A DNA stretch of 64,000 nucleotides from a virus. Lineage: Duplodnaviria > Heunggongvirae > Uroviricota > Caudoviricetes. Every line of letters starts with the position of its first letter. Position 1 is the stretch's first letter. Location: the IMG/VR virus record IMGVR_UViG_3300044712_002452, positions 11,336-75,335 of that record; one strand, 5' to 3'. The notes under the pieces are model-generated. The model was given only the letters and a program-made list of their open reading frames with translations. It did not search any database and was not told where the DNA came from. Of the stretch, positions 961 to 64,000 are shown piece after piece. A program made the translations under genes and the position numbers.

Positions 961-2391
961 ATGAAAAAACTCTTACTCGGATTATTGTTGTTTAGCGCAA
1001 CGGCTCAAGCTCAAATTACGCAATGGGTTATCGGTTCGGCTGCCGGCGGCGGTGGGGATACAGCCCACAAGTACCCCAAAATGATGTACACTAAGACTTT
1101 TGATGTCAATGCTTCTACAACAGGTTCTTGGCAAAGTGCAGGTATTACATTTGATGGTGCCAATCAACGGGTTCAAGTAGTTACCAACAATCTTGGGTTT
1201 GACGGATTGATATTCTACCCATCCACTCAAATTATTGCACCTGGACAAAAAGGGTTAATTACGGTTGATGTGGACATTGATACTTTAAAGTCGGTGTATG
1301 TATTTAGTACTTGGCCTGATTTTGTAGATAGTATTACAGTTTCAGGAACCTATACTTTTGAGTTTACTGCTGGATCTACTGTATTTCCTATTATCAGTGC
1401 AGGAAGTATAAATAAAGGACGCTTTTATGTAAAACATTTGAGTGTTTTTTATCCGGATAAGTATGAACCGGTCGCTACAAAGCCGTCTATTTTAAACTTT
1501 CAATCTACTCGTACAGGTAATAAAAAGTGGCTATCTGCAGGTAATAGAAACAAAGTAAAATCTTCAACGTCCGGTACAGATATCACCAGTTCTATTACCG
1601 TTGGATTTAATTCTGATGCGGGTTCTGATATCGGAGGACAAATTTATGGATCCAATTCATCCATTGAACAAGTCGTTCCCGGTCATAGGTACTATTCAAT
1701 GACTCAATACACAGGATCAAATTTTACAGCTAGTATTGGTAACAGCTTGATAGGTGATTATGCTTTTGCATCAGGTTGGAGACTGAATACGTTTGGTAAC
1801 TATGCTTTCAATTTGGGTGTGTCTAATAATATCATGGGAGATCGAACTTGGGCAATCGGCACGCACTTGGTAGCGGTGGGTAAAGCGGCTCATGCGTTTC
1901 AAGATAAGACCACTGACAATATTTTAATCGACGCAGCTATTGGCGACAATCCTTCGGAACACGTATTCTTTGGAAGTGCCCACTCGCATAGAAAAAGAAA
2001 TCATCCCATTACAGGTATTCCTGAATCTGGAGACTACGTTCCAGCCAATGAAATTGTACGGATCTATGGTGCCAGTGCCTATGACGACCGAGCGGTTCCT
2101 TCAGAATTTAATGTCGGCGGTGGGCATATTCGTATTGTTGCCGGTTTACCTACCGGAAGCGGTACACCGGGTACTGTCGGTTTTGCCGGTGCCTTAAGTA
2201 CACAAGCTTCACCAGGAAATAACAAAAGGCGACAAGATGTTTTAATGCTTTCTGCAGATGGTCAGTTGGTTAATACAACGACCGATACCCCCGTATTGAT
2301 TTACTATGGTGGATCATTAAGACGAATCAAAGTTGGAGCGGAAGGAAGCGGTGCCATTGGTGGAACAAGCCGAGCTTTATACATTGAATAA
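961..2391 (+). CDS. Signal-peptide-bearing fibre/spike-like protein
   Basis: N-terminus MKKLLLGLLLFSATAQA|Q. Central YadA-head-like repeats (GNYAFNLGVSNNIMGDRTWAIG). C-terminal 'RRIKVGAEGSGAIGGTSRALYIE' resembles phage fibre C-termini. Confidence 0.5.
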   Translation: MKKLLLGLLLFSATAQAQITQWVIGSAAGGGGDTAHKYPKMMYTKTFDVNASTTGSWQSAGITFDGANQRVQVVTNNLGFDGLIFYPSTQIIAPGQKGLITVDVDIDTLKSVYVFSTWPDFVDSITVSGTYTFEFTAGSTVFPIISAGSINKGRFYVKHLSVFYPDKYEPVATKPSILNFQSTRTGNKKWLSAGNRNKVKSSTSGTDITSSITVGFNSDAGSDIGGQIYGSNSSIEQVVPGHRYYSMTQYTGSNFTASIGNSLIGDYAFASGWRLNTFGNYAFNLGVSNNIMGDRTWAIGTHLVAVGKAAHAFQDKTTDNILIDAAIGDNPSEHVFFGSAHSHRKRNHPITGIPESGDYVPANEIVRIYGASAYDDRAVPSEFNVGGGHIRIVAGLPTGSGTPGTVGFAGALSTQASPGNNKRRQDVLMLSADGQLVNTTTDTPVLIYYGGSLRRIKVGAEGSGAIGGTSRALYIE

Positions 2392-7475: not shown

Positions 7476-9314
7476 ATGAGCGGAAACAATAACCCGATTA
7501 GAAGCGGCAGCCAAGTAAGTACCGGGCAACCTATTTCTTCCCAGCAAGTGGTTTGGAATGGTCCGAATATTCCTTTGCTGCAAATCAAGAAAGGAGAAAA
7601 AATCGATTCTACCATTTACAAGGCCGCCATGGTGATGACTGAAATCATCAGCGAGGTGGATCTTTCTACGGTAGACGTAAAGGATTTGTTGAAGGTTTGC
7701 GCTACTTGCCCTAATCCGACTAAAAATGTAAAGACTATTTTATCGGCGTTGATTGGGAAGGTATATCTCATTGAAGAATTGATTGAATCGCTCGATCGAC
7801 AAGTAGATGGCGAAGAAGTTTTGATTCGGGTAGCTGCTTGTTTTCGGACTGAAGACGATGGGGTACCCATTACACAACTCAAGCATTCGGATTATACCAA
7901 AGCCATTGGCTTACAGGTATGTGAGATTTTGGCAGCCGTAAAAGGGTATGAAAATGTCATTGATCAAATCGAAAACGATGTTTCCGAATTAAAACTGCGG
8001 GTATCAGCTTTGGAAGAAACCGATGACGCCATCATTGAATTGGAAAGTCGTATCGAAGTATTGGAAAAATACCGAACTGCGCTTACCCAAACTTTGGGCA
8101 GCATCAATGAAATTGCTTCCATTTTACAATCGGAACTTAAAGAATCCGAAGTCGGGGGTGCAATCCGTTCGCTGGTAACTGGTGAGGCTCTTTGGGCTGG
8201 AGATTCAACTACGGCTTCCTTGAGTATTAAACGCCTATGGCAACTGGCTATTGACGTGCGTTCGGCGGTAAAACTGATTCAAGAGAACTGCTGCAAGGTA
8301 ACCTGTGATGATATTGTCATTGATTTTGATGTTCGGCTCAACGACGATCGGACCCAAATGACCATATTTTTTGCTACCAAAACCATTTTACCCGGCGGAT
8401 TTAAGGACAACGACGCTTTGGGTAATAAGCTCACTATCATGGATGCGTTGGGTAACAAGTATGTAGAGCGGATTAAAGTGGCTGAAGAAGTCAATAATCC
8501 CAATGGATACGTAATTGATTTATCCAATACACCTATTGATCCTAACCAGGATTATTATTTGTCTATGGATGCGGCTGTTACTTCCGATCGAATGACTTGT
8601 GTTAAGTGTATCACTAAATCAATAACCTACAAATCCACTTGCGGTTACTGCGAAATTTTTGTCAAAGCTATGACGGGCGCAGCACCCGGTAATTTGATAT
8701 TGAGCTATCGTCGGGTTAGTGATCCTACGATTAAAACGGCGGTCGTAAAAACCGGCGATTCATTGATTATTCCCAAAGACATCATTATTATTCAAGCCAT
8801 TCGGGATGGAGATATTTCCATTGAAAGCCCTTGTGAGGGTATTGAGTTGCAATTAAACAACGCTGTGGGCGGGGTTCGGGAAGAATATGTGCTGAGTTTG
8901 GAATTTGCTGATTCTCAAGCCAAAGGTGATTTTGTTACCGGTATTGGATACAATGGTACTTTCTATCCGCTTACTACGCCGTTGGATATCTTGGCTGAAT
9001 TTAAAACAAACGCCAGTCTACCACATGGTATGAGCAAATTGTTCGAGTTCATTCAATCGGCTATCAGCGGCGGTCGGGATTTGCTTTTGCTCAAAGAATA
9101 CACCTTGGATACCTGGGCCGGCGGGGGAGGTACGGGTCAAGACGATCAATACATGAATGCGGTGGTTTTCAAAACTTTTGCAGCCATTATAAATAACGGA
9201 TTGTACGTACAGGTAGAAGGAAAGCCGGGTGGCGATAGCTACAATACCGCTTACCACGAACGCGGTATTCGTACCGTACAGATCCGTCCGTTTAAATTGT
9301 TGCCGCCCGAGTAA
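7476..9314 (+). CDS. Cys-rich, coiled-coil virion structural protein
   Basis: 'SSQQVVWNGPNIPLL..KKGEKID' N-terminal motif resembling structural proteins of environmental crAss-like phages, a central coiled coil and several Cys pairs. Confidence 0.5.
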   Translation: MSGNNNPIRSGSQVSTGQPISSQQVVWNGPNIPLLQIKKGEKIDSTIYKAAMVMTEIISEVDLSTVDVKDLLKVCATCPNPTKNVKTILSALIGKVYLIEELIESLDRQVDGEEVLIRVAACFRTEDDGVPITQLKHSDYTKAIGLQVCEILAAVKGYENVIDQIENDVSELKLRVSALEETDDAIIELESRIEVLEKYRTALTQTLGSINEIASILQSELKESEVGGAIRSLVTGEALWAGDSTTASLSIKRLWQLAIDVRSAVKLIQENCCKVTCDDIVIDFDVRLNDDRTQMTIFFATKTILPGGFKDNDALGNKLTIMDALGNKYVERIKVAEEVNNPNGYVIDLSNTPIDPNQDYYLSMDAAVTSDRMTCVKCITKSITYKSTCGYCEIFVKAMTGAAPGNLILSYRRVSDPTIKTAVVKTGDSLIIPKDIIIIQAIRDGDISIESPCEGIELQLNNAVGGVREEYVLSLEFADSQAKGDFVTGIGYNGTFYPLTTPLDILAEFKTNASLPHGMSKLFEFIQSAISGGRDLLLLKEYTLDTWAGGGGTGQDDQYMNAVVFKTFAAIINNGLYVQVEGKPGGDSYNTAYHERGIRTVQIRPFKLLPPE

Positions 9315-9348
9315 TTCAATTTGATTTCAAAATTTTAATCCGAACCCT

Positions 9349-9843
9349 ATGAGTTTATCCAAATATACCGAACGCTGTGTTCCAGAATTTGTTGTTCCGG
9401 AGCCTACGCCTTTACCACCTTGTCCGGAATCGGAAAACTGTTCTGAGATCATTCAATCCGATTGCGTGCGCATGAGTGCGGATATTCCGACACTCAACAT
9501 TACCAAAGGACAAAAGCTGACTTCCGTTTTTGTCAATTTTGCGGCCAATCAGTCTACTCAGGCTATTGCGGTGCAAGATAGCTTTTCGGTTGATTTATCG
9601 GGAACGGGTTTGAATACGGATCCCGTAAAAGCCGACGTAAAGCTATCGGCTGATACGGGTAATATGCTTACCGTCGAAACCGATGGACTTAAAGCTGTCA
9701 TGACACGGGAAGCGGTGTTGCAGATGTTTACGCTTATCGCTAATGATCCTGAATTGCAGATTTTGTTCTGTGAGCTGGTCGGAAACTGTGGAGATCAAGT
9801 TTGCGGTATTATTTCAGGGATTTCTGGTGAACCTCAACCTTAA
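9349..9843 (+). CDS. Virion structural protein
   Basis: 'CSEIIQSDCV..DIPTLNITKGQKL' motif, related to the N-terminus of the preceding gene. Confidence 0.45.
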   Translation: MSLSKYTERCVPEFVVPEPTPLPPCPESENCSEIIQSDCVRMSADIPTLNITKGQKLTSVFVNFAANQSTQAIAVQDSFSVDLSGTGLNTDPVKADVKLSADTGNMLTVETDGLKAVMTREAVLQMFTLIANDPELQILFCELVGNCGDQVCGIISGISGEPQP

Positions 9844-57592: not shown

Positions 57593-57623
57593 AAAAAAAA
57601 GAGCGTATTTCTACGCCCTTTTT
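57593..57623 (-). terminator. Intrinsic terminator (minus strand)
   Basis: Minus strand reads GGGCGTA-GAAA-TACGCTC followed by a T8 run, directly after the stop of 57625-57942. Confidence 0.75.
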
Positions 57624-57624
57624 G

Positions 57625-57942
57625 TCAAGTTGCAGTCAAAGCTTTTTGAAGCTCATGGGTCTGATGAATGATCCCGCTCCGGTGCTTTTGCAGCATTTCA
57701 ATCAGTTTCGGACTCGCGGCTTTAAAGCGTGGAGCATACGTTTTACCACTGGCTTTATGCTTAATGCGTTCCCGATTACCGATGGCTGCATGTACATTGC
57801 CGGAACTGGCTCCTAAAAACTGAGCCGCTTTATTGATGTTTCGACAAATAGCGGCAATAGAGCCCACTTGAGCCGGATCGTAAATCACTACGACCGTGCT
57901 ATCTAAACTCTTGTAGCAGGAATGATTACTCAACTGGTTCAT
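57625..57942 (-). CDS. Small putative DNA-binding protein (NUMOD1-like HTH)
   Basis: 'VVIYD...IAAICRNINKAAQFLGASSGNVHAAI' resembles the NUMOD1/IENR1 HTH pattern. Confidence 0.4.
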   Translation of the reverse strand: MNQLSNHSCYKSLDSTVVVIYDPAQVGSIAAICRNINKAAQFLGASSGNVHAAIGNRERIKHKASGKTYAPRFKAASPKLIEMLQKHRSGIIHQTHELQKALTAT

Positions 57943-59030
57943 TTGTTATACATGGGGTTAATGATGAATACATCCAATTTTTTCCAGCAGTGTTCAATGA
58001 TCTCCAGGTTGTCTTCAATAGCAAAAAGTACATTGAAATACTTTTCAATATAGAGTTTGTAAAGACCCCCTTTAACCGCATAATCCGGTCGGAAATCATC
58101 ATCTTGTTTCATGATCAGCATACCGACAGGAAAACCGTTATCATCCAGCCATTTTTGAGTTTCGGTTCGGTATTTTTCACTACGGGCCGTCATGTACACG
58201 ATTCCGGTTTGGTTCACCGTTTTCATCCGTTGAACCAGTGTGCGCATGGGTATGATGGGTTTATCCAAGCAAATTTTGGATTCATCAAAAATGTGCCGGT
58301 GTGAAGCATCACAGATACAACCATCAATATCTACTACGATGCATTCGGGTAAATCCGGATTCTTTTTTGGATACAAATTGTTATGCTTGGGAACAGTCAT
58401 ATTCAATTCAATTCCCGGCGTCAAACACTCTTTACCCAATAAATCAGCGTAGTGTTCAAACGCTTTTTCCAGTTTGTCTATGGGATAATTGGGGCCATGC
58501 CGCTCCAGGCTTTTTTGAATGCAGTTTTCCAGTGTTACCCCGGTCATGGTGAGCATTTTGATATCCGCTAGATGATTGTACAAGTACACATAATTCAGTA
58601 AATGTTTGACCTTCAAATGAGTACCATCTACAATTACGTTCACTTTTTGATTCAAAAAGAACAGTATTTGATGATGCATCAGGTCTACAAGCTGACTTTC
58701 CAAGGGTTGCCGGGGCCGATCGTAGTAGCCGCCGGTTTCCCAATTAGCAATGGCTGTATGCCGCATGTCTTCCAAAGACACCCGCACCCATTGTTGAATG
58801 CTGGTGTCTATGTGTTTTTGAGCAAATTTGGTTTTACCGGATCCATCAGGGCCTACTAATATCAGTAGAGTAGGGGTAAGGGTATTTTTGAATGCCGGTA
58901 TATCATAGGAATTCTTTGAACGAAGGAAATAAGAACCCGTTTTTTTGCGATGCAGTGTACGTATATCGGTTTGATCGACATTGTATTTTTTGTTTCCGTT
59001 CAAAGGAACTAACAGATCAGGTGTATCCAT
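57939..59030 (-). CDS. pseT: Polynucleotide kinase/3'-phosphatase (T4 PNKP-like)
   Basis: N-terminal 'ILVGPDGSGKT', 'VIVDGTHL' kinase domain. C-terminal HAD motifs 'VVDIDGC', 'MTARSE', 'DFRPDYAVK', 'AIEDN'. Confidence 0.85.
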   Translation of the reverse strand: MDTPDLLVPLNGNKKYNVDQTDIRTLHRKKTGSYFLRSKNSYDIPAFKNTLTPTLLILVGPDGSGKTKFAQKHIDTSIQQWVRVSLEDMRHTAIANWETGGYYDRPRQPLESQLVDLMHHQILFFLNQKVNVIVDGTHLKVKHLLNYVYLYNHLADIKMLTMTGVTLENCIQKSLERHGPNYPIDKLEKAFEHYADLLGKECLTPGIELNMTVPKHNNLYPKKNPDLPECIVVDIDGCICDASHRHIFDESKICLDKPIIPMRTLVQRMKTVNQTGIVYMTARSEKYRTETQKWLDDNGFPVGMLIMKQDDDFRPDYAVKGGLYKLYIEKYFNVLFAIEDNLEIIEHCWKKLDVFIINPMYNK

Positions 59031-59045
59031 AAAGACAACATTTTA

Positions 59046-59061
59046 TTCTACAAATGTAGAT
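59046..59061 (-). promoter_or_regulatory. -7 box TACATTTG embedded in a TCTAC/GTAGA inverted repeat upstream of the PNKP gene
   Basis: Plus strand TTCTACAAATGTAGAT; the minus strand contains TAnnTTTG at 59051-59058. No clear -33 box. Confidence 0.35.
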
Positions 59062-59071
59062 TTTTTAGAAA

Positions 59072-59821
59072 TTAATTTGAGTTGAAAAGTGGCTTAATTT
59101 TGTTCACCTGCAGCGTATTGGTATTATAAAACGCGCCGCACCAATCGATCTCGGATTTAGTGCATACGTCATATACCAGTTGTGCTGCAATATTAGCCGC
59201 CCAGGTGTTTACAAACAGACTTTGCTTTAACAGTGCTTCCATAATCGAACAAGACGGAGTATGGTCTTCCGTTTCCCAGTTATTGGCTTTTTGATTGAAT
59301 CGTTTAAAAGGATCCGGCGTTTCGGCAGGATATTTCAGAAAATGTCCAATCACGTTACCATTGAAATTACCGTTTCCGCAGTCTATCCATAGATAAGGTC
59401 TTGTCAGATCATTGTTCATTTGTTTGTTCTTGATCGACTTTTTAATTTGTTTTCTGGATGTAATCGTATCGGTGCAAGTAATCACGATATTAGCCATTTG
59501 AGCCGTGTAAATTTCTGTTACAGAAGCCCAGTTCAAATTGAAAAACCGATTGACCCGTTCAATCAATACTTCAGATTTGTACCGATCGATATCGCTGTGC
59601 AAAAACATTTGCCGTCCCAAATTGGCAAGACTTACCTGATCATTGTCAATTAAAGTGACGTGCAAGGACTTGTTAAACACCGCTTTCAAAGCTACATTCA
59701 CTCGGGCCAGTTGAGTGACGAGTTGAGAACCTGTACCGCCGGCGCCTACTACCGCAATGGTGATAGGGTGGCCGGGATCTTTCAAATAACTGGGTATTTT
59801 CAAGGATTTTAACTCTGACAT
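59072..59821 (-). CDS. PRTRC system ThiF-family (E1-like) protein
   Basis: 'VVGAGGTGS', 'IDNDQVSLANLGRQ', 'YKSEVLIERVN', 'WIDCGN', 'TPSCSIMEALLKQSLFVN'. Confidence 0.9.
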   Translation of the reverse strand: MSELKSLKIPSYLKDPGHPITIAVVGAGGTGSQLVTQLARVNVALKAVFNKSLHVTLIDNDQVSLANLGRQMFLHSDIDRYKSEVLIERVNRFFNLNWASVTEIYTAQMANIVITCTDTITSRKQIKKSIKNKQMNNDLTRPYLWIDCGNGNFNGNVIGHFLKYPAETPDPFKRFNQKANNWETEDHTPSCSIMEALLKQSLFVNTWAANIAAQLVYDVCTKSEIDWCGAFYNTNTLQVNKIKPLFNSN

Positions 59822-60522
59822 AAGCTATCAAATTTTTGTTTTACAGAAATCAGTTTTTTCGGATCAAATCGCACATTGGTATTGAGTAATTCCTGCATAT
59901 ACAGCGACAGGTTTCCATCGATAAGATTGTCTACATTGGCATGAGTAAACACGCTATTGAAAAACATATATTCAAAGGCTTGTATGATTTTATTGATATC
60001 CTTTAAAGGCAGAATGCTTTTCTTGAAATAGTTACTGGCCGATCCTAAACATACCCATCCGCTTTCATTTACATTAAAAAACGGGGCTTGATACAAATTG
60101 GTTTGTAATCCTTTAAATTCACGATAAGCATAGATACGCAAGTCTGTATGAGTACCTATCCATATAAGCCCGGGAATCCAACGCTCACCATCACTGATTT
60201 GGGTTTCTTTTTTGAATAACAGATTTCTTTTTTGTGGCTCTGTATGCCATATCAGTTTGAAGCTATCTGATTTTCCTTTCTGACAGTAGAGTAAATTGTC
60301 AGCGATATAACCTCCAAAAGAAGTCATCTTTTCTTCTTTATCTACGTTAGCCAGTAAGTTAGCAATCAATGTTTTGCTTGCCGGTTTGAGCTCTTTGATG
60401 CGACCTTGCCTATTTATTTTCGCTGACTCTATGTATCCCAGTCCATCTTGAGATTGATACAAGATCAATATTTGCTGTGGTGTAAATTTGGTCTGTAAAT
60501 CCATTTTCTTTGAGTATTTCAT
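59809..60522 (-). CDS. PRTRC system protein B (prokaryotic E2, family D)
   Basis: 'LYQAPFFNVNESGWVCLGS' containing the putative catalytic Cys, and 'FFNSVFTH'. Located between the F-like gene and ThiF. Confidence 0.85.
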   Translation of the reverse strand: MKYSKKMDLQTKFTPQQILILYQSQDGLGYIESAKINRQGRIKELKPASKTLIANLLANVDKEEKMTSFGGYIADNLLYCQKGKSDSFKLIWHTEPQKRNLLFKKETQISDGERWIPGLIWIGTHTDLRIYAYREFKGLQTNLYQAPFFNVNESGWVCLGSASNYFKKSILPLKDINKIIQAFEYMFFNSVFTHANVDNLIDGNLSLYMQELLNTNVRFDPKKLISVKQKFDSLCQS

Positions 60523-61687
60523 TTAAAGGTTGAAAAGAAAGATTATTACCAGGAATATCGCCAAAACGAAAAGCTGTTATTGCTGATACAATAGCTAATA
60601 TTGGATAACGATCTACTTTATTGGTATACAAAGTCAACTTTTCTTTATTTAAAACATCTTGGGTTTTAACTCCGGTAAATATGACAAATTCTTCGGTAAA
60701 ACTGTTTTCATCAAAATAAGCGTATCTATCTAAAAAAGTTTGGCCGGAAGTTGGAAACAAAACCATGTAATCGCTAAAAGGAGAAATACCTTCACCATAA
60801 CCGTCTTCCATTCGATAAAACCCTTGTTCAGACAACAAATAGTCATTGAGTGAGAATCCGTTGGCCGACAAAAATCCGACGGTTCGAATAAATTCGTACA
60901 AAGGATGTTTTTTGGCTTTTGCTGATTTCATGTAGAGATAAAAATCCAAATCACTCATCAGACGCGTGTACATTAAATCATACATTTCTCTTACTTCAGC
61001 GAGGGTATTATTGGCTTCTTCAATGCGATTTTCATAATAACACTTATCACAGTCATCTTCAATTTCAAATTCTTCAAATTGTTCTATTTCAGATTCTAAA
61101 AAATAGATTAGTCGATTGGGATGCTGGTAAAATCCCATATCTACTAACATTTTTAACAAATACCCGTTTACTTGTTGCTGTATTGGGGTATAGTAAGCTT
61201 TATTGAAGAGCGCTAAAATCTCATCTTCCAATCCGTAATTTAGTTGATAGGATACGTGAATTTTGGTAATTAAATGTGGGTTTCCGTAATTGCAATCTGA
61301 CTTATTTTTACCTTCCGTGTCAATATTGAAAGTAATTAACTCATCTACACACCAATTATTTTTTTGTAAATAATTATTGATTTTTAGGTAGTTGATATCG
61401 GGTTGCGTTTTATCGAATTTCAATGATGAGCTACCCGGCATTAATGCCAGGTAGTCAATCATTGTTTTAAATTGAGTCATTTGCAATTCACTCAATACCG
61501 GTTTACCTTTGTTTAACTTTCGTTGTACCTGATATCCCCGGACTGAAGACACTTTTAAATTACAAAGCTCATGTCGGAGGGTGTCATGTACTGAGGGTCT
61601 TCTCGATTCCGAATGAGATTGTTTGCAGTTTGATCTTTTAGATCGATTCTGTCTAATAGATACTGCTGTTTTCGTTTTGACTGCCAT
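60410..61687 (-). CDS. PRTRC cluster uncharacterised protein (protein F-like position)
   Basis: 425 aa, between PRTRC C and B. Assigned by synteny only. Confidence 0.5.
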   Translation of the reverse strand: MAVKTKTAVSIRQNRSKRSNCKQSHSESRRPSVHDTLRHELCNLKVSSVRGYQVQRKLNKGKPVLSELQMTQFKTMIDYLALMPGSSSLKFDKTQPDINYLKINNYLQKNNWCVDELITFNIDTEGKNKSDCNYGNPHLITKIHVSYQLNYGLEDEILALFNKAYYTPIQQQVNGYLLKMLVDMGFYQHPNRLIYFLESEIEQFEEFEIEDDCDKCYYENRIEEANNTLAEVREMYDLMYTRLMSDLDFYLYMKSAKAKKHPLYEFIRTVGFLSANGFSLNDYLLSEQGFYRMEDGYGEGISPFSDYMVLFPTSGQTFLDRYAYFDENSFTEEFVIFTGVKTQDVLNKEKLTLYTNKVDRYPILAIVSAITAFRFGDIPGNNLSFQPLNEILKENGFTDQIYTTANIDLVSISRWTGIHRVSENK

Positions 61688-61738
61688 AACACTTGTTGGT
61701 TTTTGGTTTCTTCAAAAAGTTCAGAAAGCGGCGTCAGA

Positions 61739-61942
61739 TCATCCTTTGGTACCGATATTAGTTCTGAATTCGTATACGAGCTCATAATTGTCGTTTGTAC
61801 TGCTGGAAAATGTAGCGTTGGTGAGTTCAGGATATTGCAATGCATAAAATTGCATCACTTCTTCTGCGCTCATCGCCGGATTGGGATCGGGTAGTGTAAC
61901 GCTTCCATGTTTAAACACACGGACGGTTTCTTGAATTACCAT
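61739..61942 (-). CDS. PRTRC system protein C (prokaryotic ubiquitin-like)
   Basis: 'RVFKH..TLPDPNPAMSAEEVMQFYALQYPELTNA...YEFRTNIGTKG'; ends in Gly. Confidence 0.92.
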   Translation of the reverse strand: MVIQETVRVFKHGSVTLPDPNPAMSAEEVMQFYALQYPELTNATFSSSTNDNYELVYEFRTNIGTKG

Positions 61943-61987
61943 AATAATTGTAGAATTAAATTGTTTTGTAGATATTAAACCACTGGA

Positions 61988-62731
61988 TTAGAAATCATCC
62001 AGTGGGTCAGCGCCGGCGAAAGCTTCTTCTTCTTCGGTTTCATTTTCAGCTTCTTCTTCTTGATCTACATCGTTCTCATCGATGTCATTATCTGATTCCG
62101 GCTCTGGATCTTGAACAACTGAAGCCGATTCAACTTTTACTTCTTCGGTCGCACTGGCGCCTTCAGGATTCAGTATAGCGGCCACTTTTTGCTCTACGAT
62201 GTCTTTGTACCCATCGATTTTCAATTCTTCGCATTTGCGCAAAGCATTCTTTTTCAAGAAGCTAACCATCATTTCATCACTGGTAGCCTTGATTTTGTCT
62301 ACAATGATATCTACTTGAGCGGTCAGCTTTGGATTAAACTCAGGCGCTTTCGGTTTTTCCTTTTCGGCAACGGCTTTGTTGGAAGATTTGTCACCGCCGG
62401 ATTTTCCACTGGCTTGTTTCGGAGCGGTTTTGCTTGCTTTTGTAGCCGCTTCTTTGCTTTCTTTTTCGGCTTTGGTTTCAATTACCGCTTTAGCCGCTTT
62501 AATTTGTTCCAAATTGTCTTTGAGTTCAGTGGTCAATTTGTGACCGGCTTGCAATTTGATAACCAACATATCATCCAAGTCTTCAGCGCGCCCATTAACT
62601 ACCAAAGGGGGTAGATTTTCAATAGGTTTGTCTGGTGTTACCATCACAGTGATAACATCTTTTTTCTTGCTCATACGGAAATGAAGCGTTCCTTGATCGA
62701 GCACTGATTCGAGGTCTTTAAAAAAGCCCAT
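61988..62731 (-). CDS. PRTRC system protein E
   Basis: 'MGFFKDL...ITVMVTP...LPPLVVNGRAEDLD' N-terminal domain, a Lys/Ala linker and an acidic tail. Confidence 0.8.
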   Translation of the reverse strand: MGFFKDLESVLDQGTLHFRMSKKKDVITVMVTPDKPIENLPPLVVNGRAEDLDDMLVIKLQAGHKLTTELKDNLEQIKAAKAVIETKAEKESKEAATKASKTAPKQASGKSGGDKSSNKAVAEKEKPKAPEFNPKLTAQVDIIVDKIKATSDEMMVSFLKKNALRKCEELKIDGYKDIVEQKVAAILNPEGASATEEVKVESASVVQDPEPESDNDIDENDVDQEEEAENETEEEEAFAGADPLDDF

Positions 62732-62763: not shown

Positions 62764-63027
62764 TTATTCCGGTCTATCCATAAAAGCTTCGGACCATTCA
62801 ACGGGGGATATACCGGTCAAAATAAATTCCCGTAGATCCGCATTTAATTCAGGAAACGCCGTTTGAACGTGTTGTCTTTTTTCGGGATTGTTTTGATTAA
62901 CATAGTAATCGTTGAGCCGCTTGGCGCTTACTGGTATCAGCATTACATTTTGGGCACCCGTTAATTCGCTTTTACGGGTTAGCCTGGCATAATTTTCAGA
63001 AACAGGTTCAATGATAACACTACCCAT
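62764..63027 (-). CDS. Conserved small phage hypothetical protein
   Basis: 'RKSELTG..N.M...VQTAFPELNADLREFILTGISP.EW' motif typical of a widespread phage family. Confidence 0.7.
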   Translation of the reverse strand: MGSVIIEPVSENYARLTRKSELTGAQNVMLIPVSAKRLNDYYVNQNNPEKRQHVQTAFPELNADLREFILTGISPVEWSEAFMDRPE

Positions 63028-63031
63028 GATA

Positions 63032-63388
63032 TTACAAATTAATGTTTTCGATAGGAATGGGTTGAATCGGTTTGACGGAATTCATTCGTTCGGTGAATTT
63101 TCCATTTACGTTGTCGTAGATAGTTTCTCCTTCACGGTTTATAAATTCCAGTGTGGGCATACCTTCGTTTTTTTCCAATGGGATTGGTACTGAAGCTTCA
63201 ATAATGTATTCAATACTGCCACCCATCGCTTCAAAGATTCCGTTTTCAGGATCATCTTCAACGGTATCTTTTTCAGCAAAAACAACCATTTTATCAATGG
63301 CTTCCGATAAATTATCGGCTTCTACTAAGTAGTTTGTACGTTCCCAAGTAGTTACTTTTTGATCTTTTGTAATCAGAAATTTACTCAT
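63032..63388 (-). CDS. Acidic hypothetical protein
   Basis: 118-aa ORF in the operon. Confidence 0.55.
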   Translation of the reverse strand: MSKFLITKDQKVTTWERTNYLVEADNLSEAIDKMVVFAEKDTVEDDPENGIFEAMGGSIEYIIEASVPIPLEKNEGMPTLEFINREGETIYDNVNGKFTERMNSVKPIQPIPIENINL

Positions 63389-63398
63389 CTCTATGGTT

Positions 63399-63968
63399 TT
63401 AAAAAGTTAGGTTTTCTTCATCTGTCAGATCCGTGTCCGGCGGTCCATTTTTTTGAACGTACATGTCGAATACAGGTAAAATTTTCAGTAGGGTATCCGA
63501 CATACTTCCTCTTTCGGTGGAAGTCAAAGCGTTCTTCATTGCCGCAGTAAACATTTCAGCTTTCTCCAATAAAGGCGCTTTTATCTGTCCTTTTGGATAT
63601 TTTACCGTATCGCAGCGATCCGCGGAATCATCAACCGAATAAAAATTCCGGCAGCTTGCAGGTCGAACCGTATAAACTTTACATTCACCTTTGTCTTTGT
63701 CTAAAAAGACGCAACTGTTAACGGTTGGATCAAACGCAATAGCCATTTTATCTTTGACCGCATTTTGTTTCTTGAGATATTGGCGGTCAATGTAAATACC
63801 TTTTTGCCGTGCGTAAGTTAAAAGCAGATATCCTTCTTCTTCTGAGATATCTACGTTTTGTTTGCAACAAAAAGAACACCCTTTCCGGCAGATGATATCA
63901 TCTTTGTGCGGGCTTCTCTTTATATCTTGAAACACCAATTGATTTAGGATCAAAAGTATTTGAAACAT
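63399..63968 (-). CDS. YkgJ-family cysteine-cluster (CxxCxxCC) Zn/Fe-chelating protein
   Basis: 'CRKGCSFCC', 'CVFLD...CKVYTVRPASCR'. Confidence 0.85.
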   Translation of the reverse strand: MFQILLILNQLVFQDIKRSPHKDDIICRKGCSFCCKQNVDISEEEGYLLLTYARQKGIYIDRQYLKKQNAVKDKMAIAFDPTVNSCVFLDKDKGECKVYTVRPASCRNFYSVDDSADRCDTVKYPKGQIKAPLLEKAEMFTAAMKNALTSTERGSMSDTLLKILPVFDMYVQKNGPPDTDLTDEENLTF

Positions 63969-64000
63969 ACTGTCCGCTTTTTCGACTAAATCCGTTTTAG

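Follow-up and report, generated by a model that had tools for sequence, protein, structure and literature searches.

A predicted PRTRC ubiquitin-like conjugation cassette without a JAB peptidase in the genome of a crAss-like phage

We analyzed a 64,000-nucleotide stretch of DNA (the window) from the complete 139-kb genome of a crAss-like phage. The genome is that of a genuine phage, as it encodes a terminase, a portal, a major head protein, and a DNA polymerase. An open reading frame (ORF) check placed five genes on the minus strand between positions 59072 and 62731, in the order E, C, a 425-amino-acid ORF, B, and ThiF. These five genes make up a PRTRC, or ParB-Related, ThiF-Related Cassette. 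A sequence-only reading had recognized E, C (ending in GTKG), B (with a VC motif), and ThiF (with a PSCS motif) at this site, and the ORFs, the profile matches, and the conservation of the motifs all bear out these assignments.

Protein E (61988..62731, minus strand; 247 amino acids) matches TIGR03741 with 41.9 bits (cut-off 37.95) over residues 3-105 and also matches PF19556 (27.8). Its conserved N-terminal domain of ~105 amino acids is followed by a low-complexity middle region rich in Lys, Glu, and Ala and by an acidic tail that ends in ADPLDDF. Related E proteins share this plan, with an N-terminal domain, a disordered stretch, and an acidic tail whose last residue is frequently F, W, or Y. 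Using a consensus scan, we detected a putative terminator-like hairpin of 9 pairs with a weak T-tail (61980..62005, minus strand), which extends across the E stop codon just upstream of C and may attenuate read-through. Protein C (61739..61942, minus strand) is a Prok_Ub tag of 67 amino acids in which the terminal GTKG is followed directly by the stop codon. It matches TIGR03738 with 64 bits (cut-off 45.95) and PF14454 with 76 bits, and G64, K66, and G67 are invariant in the alignment of its relatives.

Protein B (59809..60522, minus strand) is E2-like, with a UBC fold. It matches Prok-E2_D (PF14460) with 98 bits (cut-off 25), while its score against the TIGR03737 equivalog, 89.9 bits, falls below the cut-off of 131.45. 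By these scores, protein B is a member at the superfamily and domain level and is divergent at the equivalog level. Across 14 B proteins, P147, N150, C158, and G160 show no variation, and H194 shows almost none. The motif AP-F-x-N...V-C-L-G resembles the HPN...C of classical E2 enzymes, and C158 is the predicted catalytic cysteine. A His located C-terminal to the E2 Cys, with the classical His absent, was described for operon type 6d (Iyer et al., 2006; PMC1779556), and H194, downstream of C158, corresponds to this feature.

The final gene of the cassette (59072..59821, minus strand), which shares 13 nucleotides with the end of B, encodes a ThiF-family E1 of 249 amino acids with a single adenylation domain. 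The E1 matches PF00899 and also TIGR03736, with 185.9 bits (cut-off 144.75); when TIGR03736 was run on the whole genome, the E1 scored 185.3 bits. Identity to its relatives ranges from 29-47%. The GxGGxG loop (G26, G28, G29, and G31), R70, Q71, K82, D118, P189, S190, and C191 are invariant in 18 E1s, and C191, which lies in the PSCS motif, is the candidate catalytic cysteine. Searches of the PDB with the B and C profiles returned no match, and the literature we searched contained no PRTRC component that had been assayed or solved.

Between C and B, in the slot of protein F, lies the 425-amino-acid ORF (60410..61687, minus strand). At its 3′ end it shares 113 nucleotides with the start of B, and the version predicted by the gene caller begins at a GTG at residue 46. 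The protein is an ORFan, with no family match in NCBIfam, Pfam, PHROG, or PADLOC. PRTRC_F (TIGR03742) was absent at E<=1 from both this ORF and the whole genome. A HMMER search of 1.84e9 representative proteins recovered only the protein itself and one repetitive partial match, consisting of 10 stretches on residues 28-88, and the ESM Atlas yielded no usable match. In hhalign comparisons, the probability was 0.3% against three F proteins and <=2.7% across F, the plasmid middle proteins, and a 48-member Bacteroidota middle family. A single-sequence AF2 model was unusable (pLDDT 33) and was left out of the fold search. The earlier description of this protein as F-like is thus correct for gene order and position and incorrect for family. 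As neither sequence nor structure ties the protein to other middle proteins, its role is assigned from its position.

Middle proteins diverge beyond recognition even between closest relatives, and of 72 loci examined on viral contigs, 65 have an ORF of 361-421 amino acids in the middle slot. Members of the Bacteroidota middle family are predicted to fold well (pLDDT 85). With Foldseek, this family had no match in the PDB at E<0.4, and the best VIA-align Z score against 48,161 chains was 4.7. The predicted structure corresponds to no known fold that we could name, which is not proof of a new fold.

The cassette had been placed in the putative early region of the phage, and in our analysis a complete E1-E2-Ubl set of the PRTRC type lies in the replication-side minus-strand module, where its neighbors include genes for DNA polymerase, helicase, primase, and polynucleotide kinase-phosphatase (PNKP). 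The PNKP gene (57939..59030, minus strand; PF25109 and AAA_33; phrog_505, 2e-47) is directly downstream of the cassette and outside it, and is followed by a strong terminator-like hairpin found by consensus scan (57596-57623). Upstream are three co-directional genes (62764..64000, minus strand), which encode an 87-amino-acid protein (phrog_20898), a 118-amino-acid protein, and a CxxCxxCC protein whose gene extends beyond the end of the window. Homologs of the last two also occur upstream of PRTRC at other loci in our set (L088 and L098-L100 for the 118-amino-acid protein; L084 for the CxxCxxCC protein).

Misassembly of the cassette from a separate element is unlikely. Both its GC content (0.380) and its tetranucleotide profile (r=0.95) are typical of the minus-strand module, and it is spanned without differences by contigs of 73,780 and 139,238 nucleotides from two runs, both of which may be source samples. 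On the basis of GC content, tetranucleotides, and the two spanning contigs, the cassette is part of the phage genome. Since it is missing from all 15 of the nearest terminase relatives of the phage, it is dispensable, or accessory, for the phage lineage. The nearby DNA had no blastn-level match to GenBank phages, and a single-protein scan across viral contigs returned nothing.

The observation that no JAB peptidase was in view extends beyond the window. In a search that recovered both positive controls (253 and 271 bits), PRTRC_A (the JAB protein; TIGR03735) was absent across the whole 139-kb genome. Nor did it turn up in 50 viral records or in 10 E1-carrying Bacteroidota genomes. Judged from these profile searches, the absence of the JAB is a common sub-architecture and is not peculiar to this phage. 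One RadC-family JAB is encoded in the phage genome, 36 kb from the cassette and outside the window. We rejected RadC-type JABs as the missing peptidase, as RadC is located within 10 kb of PRTRC in 8 of 158 loci and is 36 kb away here. The sequence-only reading had also proposed a search of the remaining contig for a ParB gene. Both PRTRC ParB (TIGR03734, E<=1) and ParB_N (PF02195, E<=0.1) were absent from the whole genome.

In 2006, PRTRC was predicted to carry out genuine ubiquitin-like conjugation in prokaryotes (Iyer, Burroughs, and Aravind; PMC1779556). Phage-borne examples, including annotated cassettes in cultured phages, are already on record in Ralstonia phage Dina, Burkholderia phages BgVeeders33 and AB2, and a Phocaeicola prophage, and we identified PRTRC cassettes in 312 IMG/VR contigs. 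The rarity of phage-borne PRTRC implied by the initial description is therefore contradicted, and the locus is one more example of a widespread PRTRC, not the first phage-borne case. A genome-contig scan with a narrow alignment returned four loci. As Bacteroidetes TraG ATPase was found in none of 50 records, the idea that the IMG/VR carriers are conjugative elements gained no support. Terminase_6N matched 11 of 38 records, a set that includes the phage's own genome, which had no match.

The order E-C-(middle)-B-ThiF, which is the canonical PRTRC order minus A, occurs in the great majority of ~150 viral and metagenomic loci. Among Bacteroidota elements the JAB-less form is standard, and several plasmids have it as well. 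We propose this JAB-less sub-architecture as a grouping of the present analysis, not as a curated family. The phage locus has all of its parts, namely E, a short C ending in Gly, a middle ORF of 340-490 amino acids, B, and ThiF, with no gene intervening between B and ThiF.

Gene order is identical in the JAB-less plasmids pQBR55 (Pseudomonas fluorescens SBW25), pVPS92-VEB (Vibrio parahaemolyticus), and pDEIPR02 (Deinococcus proteolyticus). In the JAB-less plasmid and Bacteroidota versions, C consists of 67-73 amino acids and ends at the conserved Gly, and the middle protein is 340-490 amino acids long, as in the phage. On the plasmids, a ParB gene lies immediately upstream, whereas the phage has none genome-wide, and the phage middle protein has no detectable similarity to its plasmid and Bacteroidota counterparts. 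Canonical PRTRC (TIGR03734-03742; operon type 6d, PMC1779556), exemplified by a Rhodoferax ferrireducens T118 plasmid, Ralstonia phage Dina, and Burkholderia phage BgVeeders33, contains the same E, C, B, and ThiF families in the same order and with the same catalytic motifs. However, canonical cassettes also contain the JAB protein A and protein F, both of which are missing from the phage cassette. Moreover, canonical C proteins are 129-141 amino acids long, with an extension of 55-70 amino acids after the Gly that needs to be removed, while the phage C is already mature.

The proposal that a free C-terminal Gly makes a priming peptidase unnecessary was supported when we compared 117 loci. The C-terminal Gly is at the stop codon in 113 of 117 complete C proteins, as part of GTKG in 93 of them. 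Only three of the 117 loci have protein A, and only the C proteins of those loci carry the 55-70-amino-acid C-terminal extension, without exception among the loci with protein A. The free C-terminal Gly of C thus explains the missing priming peptidase.

We think that the locus is probably a functional JAB-less PRTRC cassette of operon type 6d, which a crAss-like phage carries in its replication-side gene block as an accessory module. In the mechanism we envisage, the ThiF-type E1 would adenylate Gly67 of C and then hold C as a thioester on Cys191. From the E1, the tag would move to Cys158 of B, the E2-like protein, which would in turn attach C to lysines on at least one target. Translated in its mature form, C would need no priming peptidase, and as the cassette lacks a JAB dedicated to deconjugation, it probably does not take the mark off again. 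The fast-diverging 425-amino-acid protein in the F slot is the likeliest candidate for a specificity factor. Possibly, protein E, with its Lys-rich disordered region, serves as a scaffold or acceptor.

Bacterial E1/E2/Ubl operons can serve immunity, as Bil (BilABCD, types I and II) and type II CBASS demonstrate, and for Bil the E2 has been proposed to select targets without an E3. Bil and CBASS Cap2/Cap3 are the only bacterial relatives with demonstrated biochemistry, and the phage cassette is predicted to share with them conjugation of the E1, E2, and Ubl type. One explanation for the cassette is a phage-carried role in defense or superinfection exclusion, in which tagging the structural proteins of competing phages, or other invaders, would block assembly in a Bil-like manner. 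PRTRC is often found in proviruses and ICE-like elements, where defense cargo is common. The rapid divergence of the middle proteins would fit an arms race, as would the reported variation in protein B, which a 2026 preprint describes as a recurrent hypervariation hotspot in a Phocaeicola prophage and attributes to a diversity-generating retroelement. Although the E1 weakly matches the PADLOC models for Cap2-type E1-E2 proteins, these matches are at the Rossmann level only (<=36 bits; 28.9 bits for NF058523, cut-off 320), and B, C, E, and the 425-amino-acid protein match no PADLOC model. BilD is a multi-domain E1, with inactive and active adenylation domains and a Cys domain, and Cap2 is an E2-E1 fusion beside a CD-NTase. 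In contrast, the phage E1 is a single 249-amino-acid domain encoded separately from the E2, with no CD-NTase. Bil (BilC) and CBASS also include a JAB, which the phage cassette does not, and the cassette lies inside a replication module, outside any recognizable defense island. A lytic-type crAss-like phage also gains less from exclusion. We regard this role as unlikely; judged from its gene content, the cassette at most works like Bil or CBASS and is not a member of either.

PRTRC has been called a partitioning cassette in the literature, without tests, and in canonical plasmid loci a PRTRC-specific ParB gene is directly upstream of E. A maintenance or partition accessory that modifies the element's own partition or replication proteins would explain this link to ParB, and the phage does encode a Rep_3-type initiator. 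However, the plasmid-maintenance idea is weakened by the lack of a ParB_N domain in the phage, whose genome also contains no PRTRC ParB. Only 19 of the 50 PRTRC-bearing viral records have a ParB_N match, and the cassette is ~45 kb from the Rep and partition genes of the phage. Such a role strikes us as quite unlikely. We find it very improbable that the cassette is a sulfur-carrier pathway, in which the E1 would thiocarboxylate C, as occurs with ThiS/ThiF and MoaD/MoeB, to thiolate a cofactor, tRNA, or DNA. The E1 does belong to the ThiF/MoeB superfamily, and these pathways have in common with PRTRC an adenylating Rossmann core and a Gly-ending beta-grasp partner, here the small protein C. Yet such a pathway would have no use for the conserved E2-like protein and its invariant Cys, and no gene for a rhodanese, a cysteine desulfurase, or a thiazole or molybdopterin synthase is nearby to supply a sulfur-transfer partner. 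The E1 also scores far below the cut-offs of the ThiF (40.4 bits, cut-off 159) and MoeB (30 bits, cut-off 266) equivalogs. When the E1 profile was compared with the PDB, it matched over the Rossmann part only, and its best matches were the eukaryotic NEDD8, UBA6, and UBA1 E1s, ahead of ThiF.

We favor a functional JAB-less conjugation cassette, and as to its role we suggest, tentatively, that it could help the element to establish itself after infection, with the tag attached either to proteins of the host or to replication or defense-related proteins of the element. The location among replication genes, the divergence of the middle protein, and the reported hypervariation of protein B all bear on this role. 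PRTRC occurs widely, on plasmids, on ICEs, and in hundreds of phage genomes. Within this family, the locus, from a complete phage genome, is a clean minimal case: a finished tag with a single E1, a single E2, and no peptidase. The loss of the JAB is tied to the loss of the C-terminal extension of the tag, a simple, testable rule that separates two architectures. The finding is of value more for the PRTRC family as a whole than for this one locus among many.

A bolder and rather doubtful proposal is that PRTRC is an establishment weapon, in which the E2 and the fast-evolving middle protein would select host immune or stress proteins for irreversible tagging with C early after DNA entry. The JAB-less form, which this phage has in common with hundreds of Bacteroidota phages, would then be a streamlined version. 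If true, PRTRC would be the first ubiquitin-like counter-defense system of phages and plasmids, a mirror image of Bil.

The cassette is real and complete, and the sequence-only reading described it correctly. Five genes are transcribed from the minus strand in the order E, C, middle ORF, B and ThiF. E (61988-62731, 247 aa) and C (61739-61942, 67 aa) match PRTRC_E and PRTRC_C above cut-off; C, the putative tag, also matches Prok_Ub (76 bits) and ends in GTKG followed by the stop. ThiF, the E1 (59072-59821, 249 aa), scores 185.9 bits against PRTRC_ThiF, above cut-off, and B, the E2-like protein (59809-60522, 237 aa), matches Prok-E2_D with 98 bits and PRTRC_B with 89.9 bits, under the cut-off of 131. 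The middle ORF (60410-61687, 425 aa) has no family evidence.

In about 100 loci, protein E has a common layout: a domain at the N-terminus, then a long low-complexity stretch rich in Lys and Glu, and an acidic C-terminal tail whose final residue is often F, W or Y; the phage E ends in ...ADPLDDF. Such tails may resemble the C-terminal tips seen in SSB proteins.

In an alignment of 18 E1 proteins, the invariant residues are the nucleotide loop G26-x-G28-G29-x-G31, R70, Q71, K82, D118 and P189-S190-C191. Among 14 B proteins, no variation is seen at P147, N150, C158 and G160 and almost none at H194, and the stretch AP-F-x-N...V-C-L-G resembles the HPN...C core of classical E2s. These residues, together with the profile matches, bear out every detail noted earlier from the sequence: E, C with GTKG, B with VC and ThiF with PSCS. 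The description of operon type 6d (Iyer, Burroughs and Aravind; PMC1779556) includes a His after the Cys in the E2, a trait that the phage B has (H194 after C158), and lists a "rapidly diverging alpha-helical protein".

The sequence-only reading saw no JAB peptidase in view and proposed that a free C-terminal Gly would make a priming peptidase unnecessary. There is no PRTRC_A, the JAB peptidase of canonical PRTRC, anywhere in the phage genome, in 50 E1-carrying viral records or in 10 E1-carrying Bacteroidota genomes, by a search that returned 253 and 271 bits for its two positive controls. The same JAB-less order is found on plasmids pQBR55, pVPS92-VEB and pDEIPR02. Gly stands directly before the stop in 113 of 117 complete C proteins (as GTKG in 93 of them), and in one the ending is GTKA; in the other three, the conserved Gly is followed by 55-70 further residues. 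Protein A is present at only three loci, the same three. Because extended C proteins are confined to the protein-A loci, loss of the peptidase goes with loss of the propeptide, and this pairing supports the proposal that C needs no priming. JAB absence is the rule for this PRTRC architecture.

Extended to the whole genome, the statement that no JAB is in view holds for PRTRC_A but not for JAB-type proteins at large. The only such protein in the genome is a RadC-family JAB (PF04002, 121.8 bits; motif HNHPSG...S..D), encoded outside the window and 36 kb from the cassette, at 110386-110952 on the minus strand of the whole genome (G000:C1), equivalent to 1402-1968, minus strand, of L002, a part of the same genome. 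In five compared loci (L018, L019, L024, L061 and L084), a RadC homolog is encoded 4-7 kb upstream of PRTRC. We set the RadC-family protein aside as a cassette partner because, besides its distance here, just 8 of 158 loci have a homolog close to PRTRC.

The canonical PRTRC order is ParB, E, C, F, B, A, ThiF, seen in full in a Rhodoferax plasmid and from E to ThiF in Ralstonia phage Dina. The middle ORF had been called F-like, which is apt for its position between C and B but not for its sequence: it does not match PRTRC_F, and we do not regard it as protein F. A search of 1.84 billion representative proteins returned only the ORF itself and one repetitive partial match, and no profile links were found with protein F, with the JAB-less plasmids' middle proteins or with a 48-member Bacteroidota middle family. 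The middle protein of L084, the contig with the closest cassette, aligns with E = 0.006 over just 58 residues. A middle ORF of 361-421 aa occupies the slot in 65 of 72 examined viral-contig loci. The F slot is conserved, but not the sequence that fills it.

The last 113 nt of the 425-aa ORF (60410-60522) also encode the start of B, and in L084 the middle ORF (8282-9628) and B (from 9243) have several hundred nucleotides in common; at most other loci the overlap is just a few bases. The Bacteroidota-type family (L037:8128-9276 and 47 relatives, alignment A7) gave a confident model (pLDDT 85, pTM 0.79), for which no PDB fold was recognised (no Foldseek E below 0.4; best VIA Z 4.7). Only Y221, G224 and D324 are nearly invariant in this family.

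The implication that phage-borne PRTRC is rare does not hold. Cassettes are annotated in the cultured Ralstonia phage Dina (RefSeq) and Burkholderia phage BgVeeders33, and relatives of the phage E1 are encoded in 312 IMG/VR contigs. A 2026 paper (PMC13366799) describes a cassette in Burkholderia phage AB2 and states that its function is unstudied; in a 2026 preprint, the PRTRC protein B encoded by a Phocaeicola prophage is reported to be a recurrent hotspot of hypervariation, attributed there to a diversity-generating retroelement. A Bacteroidetes conjugation ATPase was found in none of 50 E1-carrying IMG/VR records tested, and a terminase was recognisable in 11 of 38, a set that includes the phage's own genome, itself without a match. 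Any ParB_N domain occurs in 19 of 50 PRTRC-bearing viral records. The E1 is present in about 3% of the Bacteroidota genomes sampled. No functional study of PRTRC was found in the literature searched, and the PDB contains no solved structure of any PRTRC protein. On the Deinococcus proteolyticus plasmid pDEIPR02 (L158, 1-6666), a single E and a single C precede two consecutive units, each made up of a middle protein, a B-like protein and ThiF, so that one tag may be common to two E2/E1 pairs.

The carrier is confirmed as a phage by genes for the large terminase (phrog_6681, 8e-59), portal (phrog_6547, 5e-63), family-A-type DNA polymerase (phrog_1252, 4e-129), major head protein, helicase and primase, all outside the window. 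The source record (139,335 bp), of which the window is bases 11336-75335, has direct terminal repeats and is rated complete in IMG/VR. The label crAss-like is putative; the features bearing on it here are the genes just named and a run of 2,285-3,065-aa ORFs. The genome has a plus-strand structural arm and a minus-strand arm (genome 66.9-124.6 kb) of replication and accessory genes, with the cassette close to the distal end of the latter. Terminases 53-58% identical to that of the phage occur in 386 IMG/VR contigs (L165-L244 among them), eight of them 92-128 kb. They form a sizeable lineage, uncultured, that does not conserve the cassette: the E1 is lacking in each of the 15 closest relatives by terminase (six at least 90% complete, 110-128 kb), and we therefore consider the cassette accessory there. 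In a quick tree, the phage E1 falls with moderate support in a small, deep branch of uncultured sequences (44-47% identity), and other minus-arm genes are common to the phage and some contigs of that branch.

Misassembly had been raised as a concern. The cassette is typical of its arm in GC content (0.380 versus a median of 0.389) and tetranucleotide correlation (0.95 versus 0.958), and two contigs (73,780 and 139,238 nt) show zero differences over 14 kb around it; they come from two runs in two studies, and both runs may be source samples. Neither composition nor these two contigs, which are not fully independent, point to a recent acquisition or a misjoin.

Homologs of a 118-aa protein (63032-63388) lie upstream of PRTRC in the unrelated contigs L088 and L098-L100, as does a homolog of a CxxCxxCC protein (from 63399; the region 62764-64000 continues to genome 75534) in L084. 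The conserved PRTRC neighbourhood may be wider than five genes. Directly downstream of E1 is a polynucleotide kinase-phosphatase (PNKP) gene (57939-59030); in the 41-nt gap between them, the phage's TTTGTAGA-type promoter word occurs with one mismatch (59044-59054, minus strand).

By the established E1/E2 mechanism, E1 would adenylate Gly67 of C, which would then be thioester-linked to Cys191 of E1, transferred to Cys158 of B and passed onto lysines. Position and divergence suggest that the 425-aa protein could be a specificity factor. For protein E, our guess is that it serves as a scaffold or an acceptor, in view of the disordered, Lys-rich middle part and the acidic, often aromatic-ended tail found across the family.

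For the role of the cassette, we rank establishment or counter-defence first, on the replication-module setting, the adjoining PNKP gene, the arms-race-like divergence and the preprint report on B. Second is defence against rival phages, and third is partition, weakened by the lack of any ParB in the phage genome; sulfur transfer is last. The cassette is an ordinary member, of the common JAB-less form, of the known and widespread PRTRC family; its local oddities are limited to the ORFan in the F slot and the putatively crAss-like carrier.
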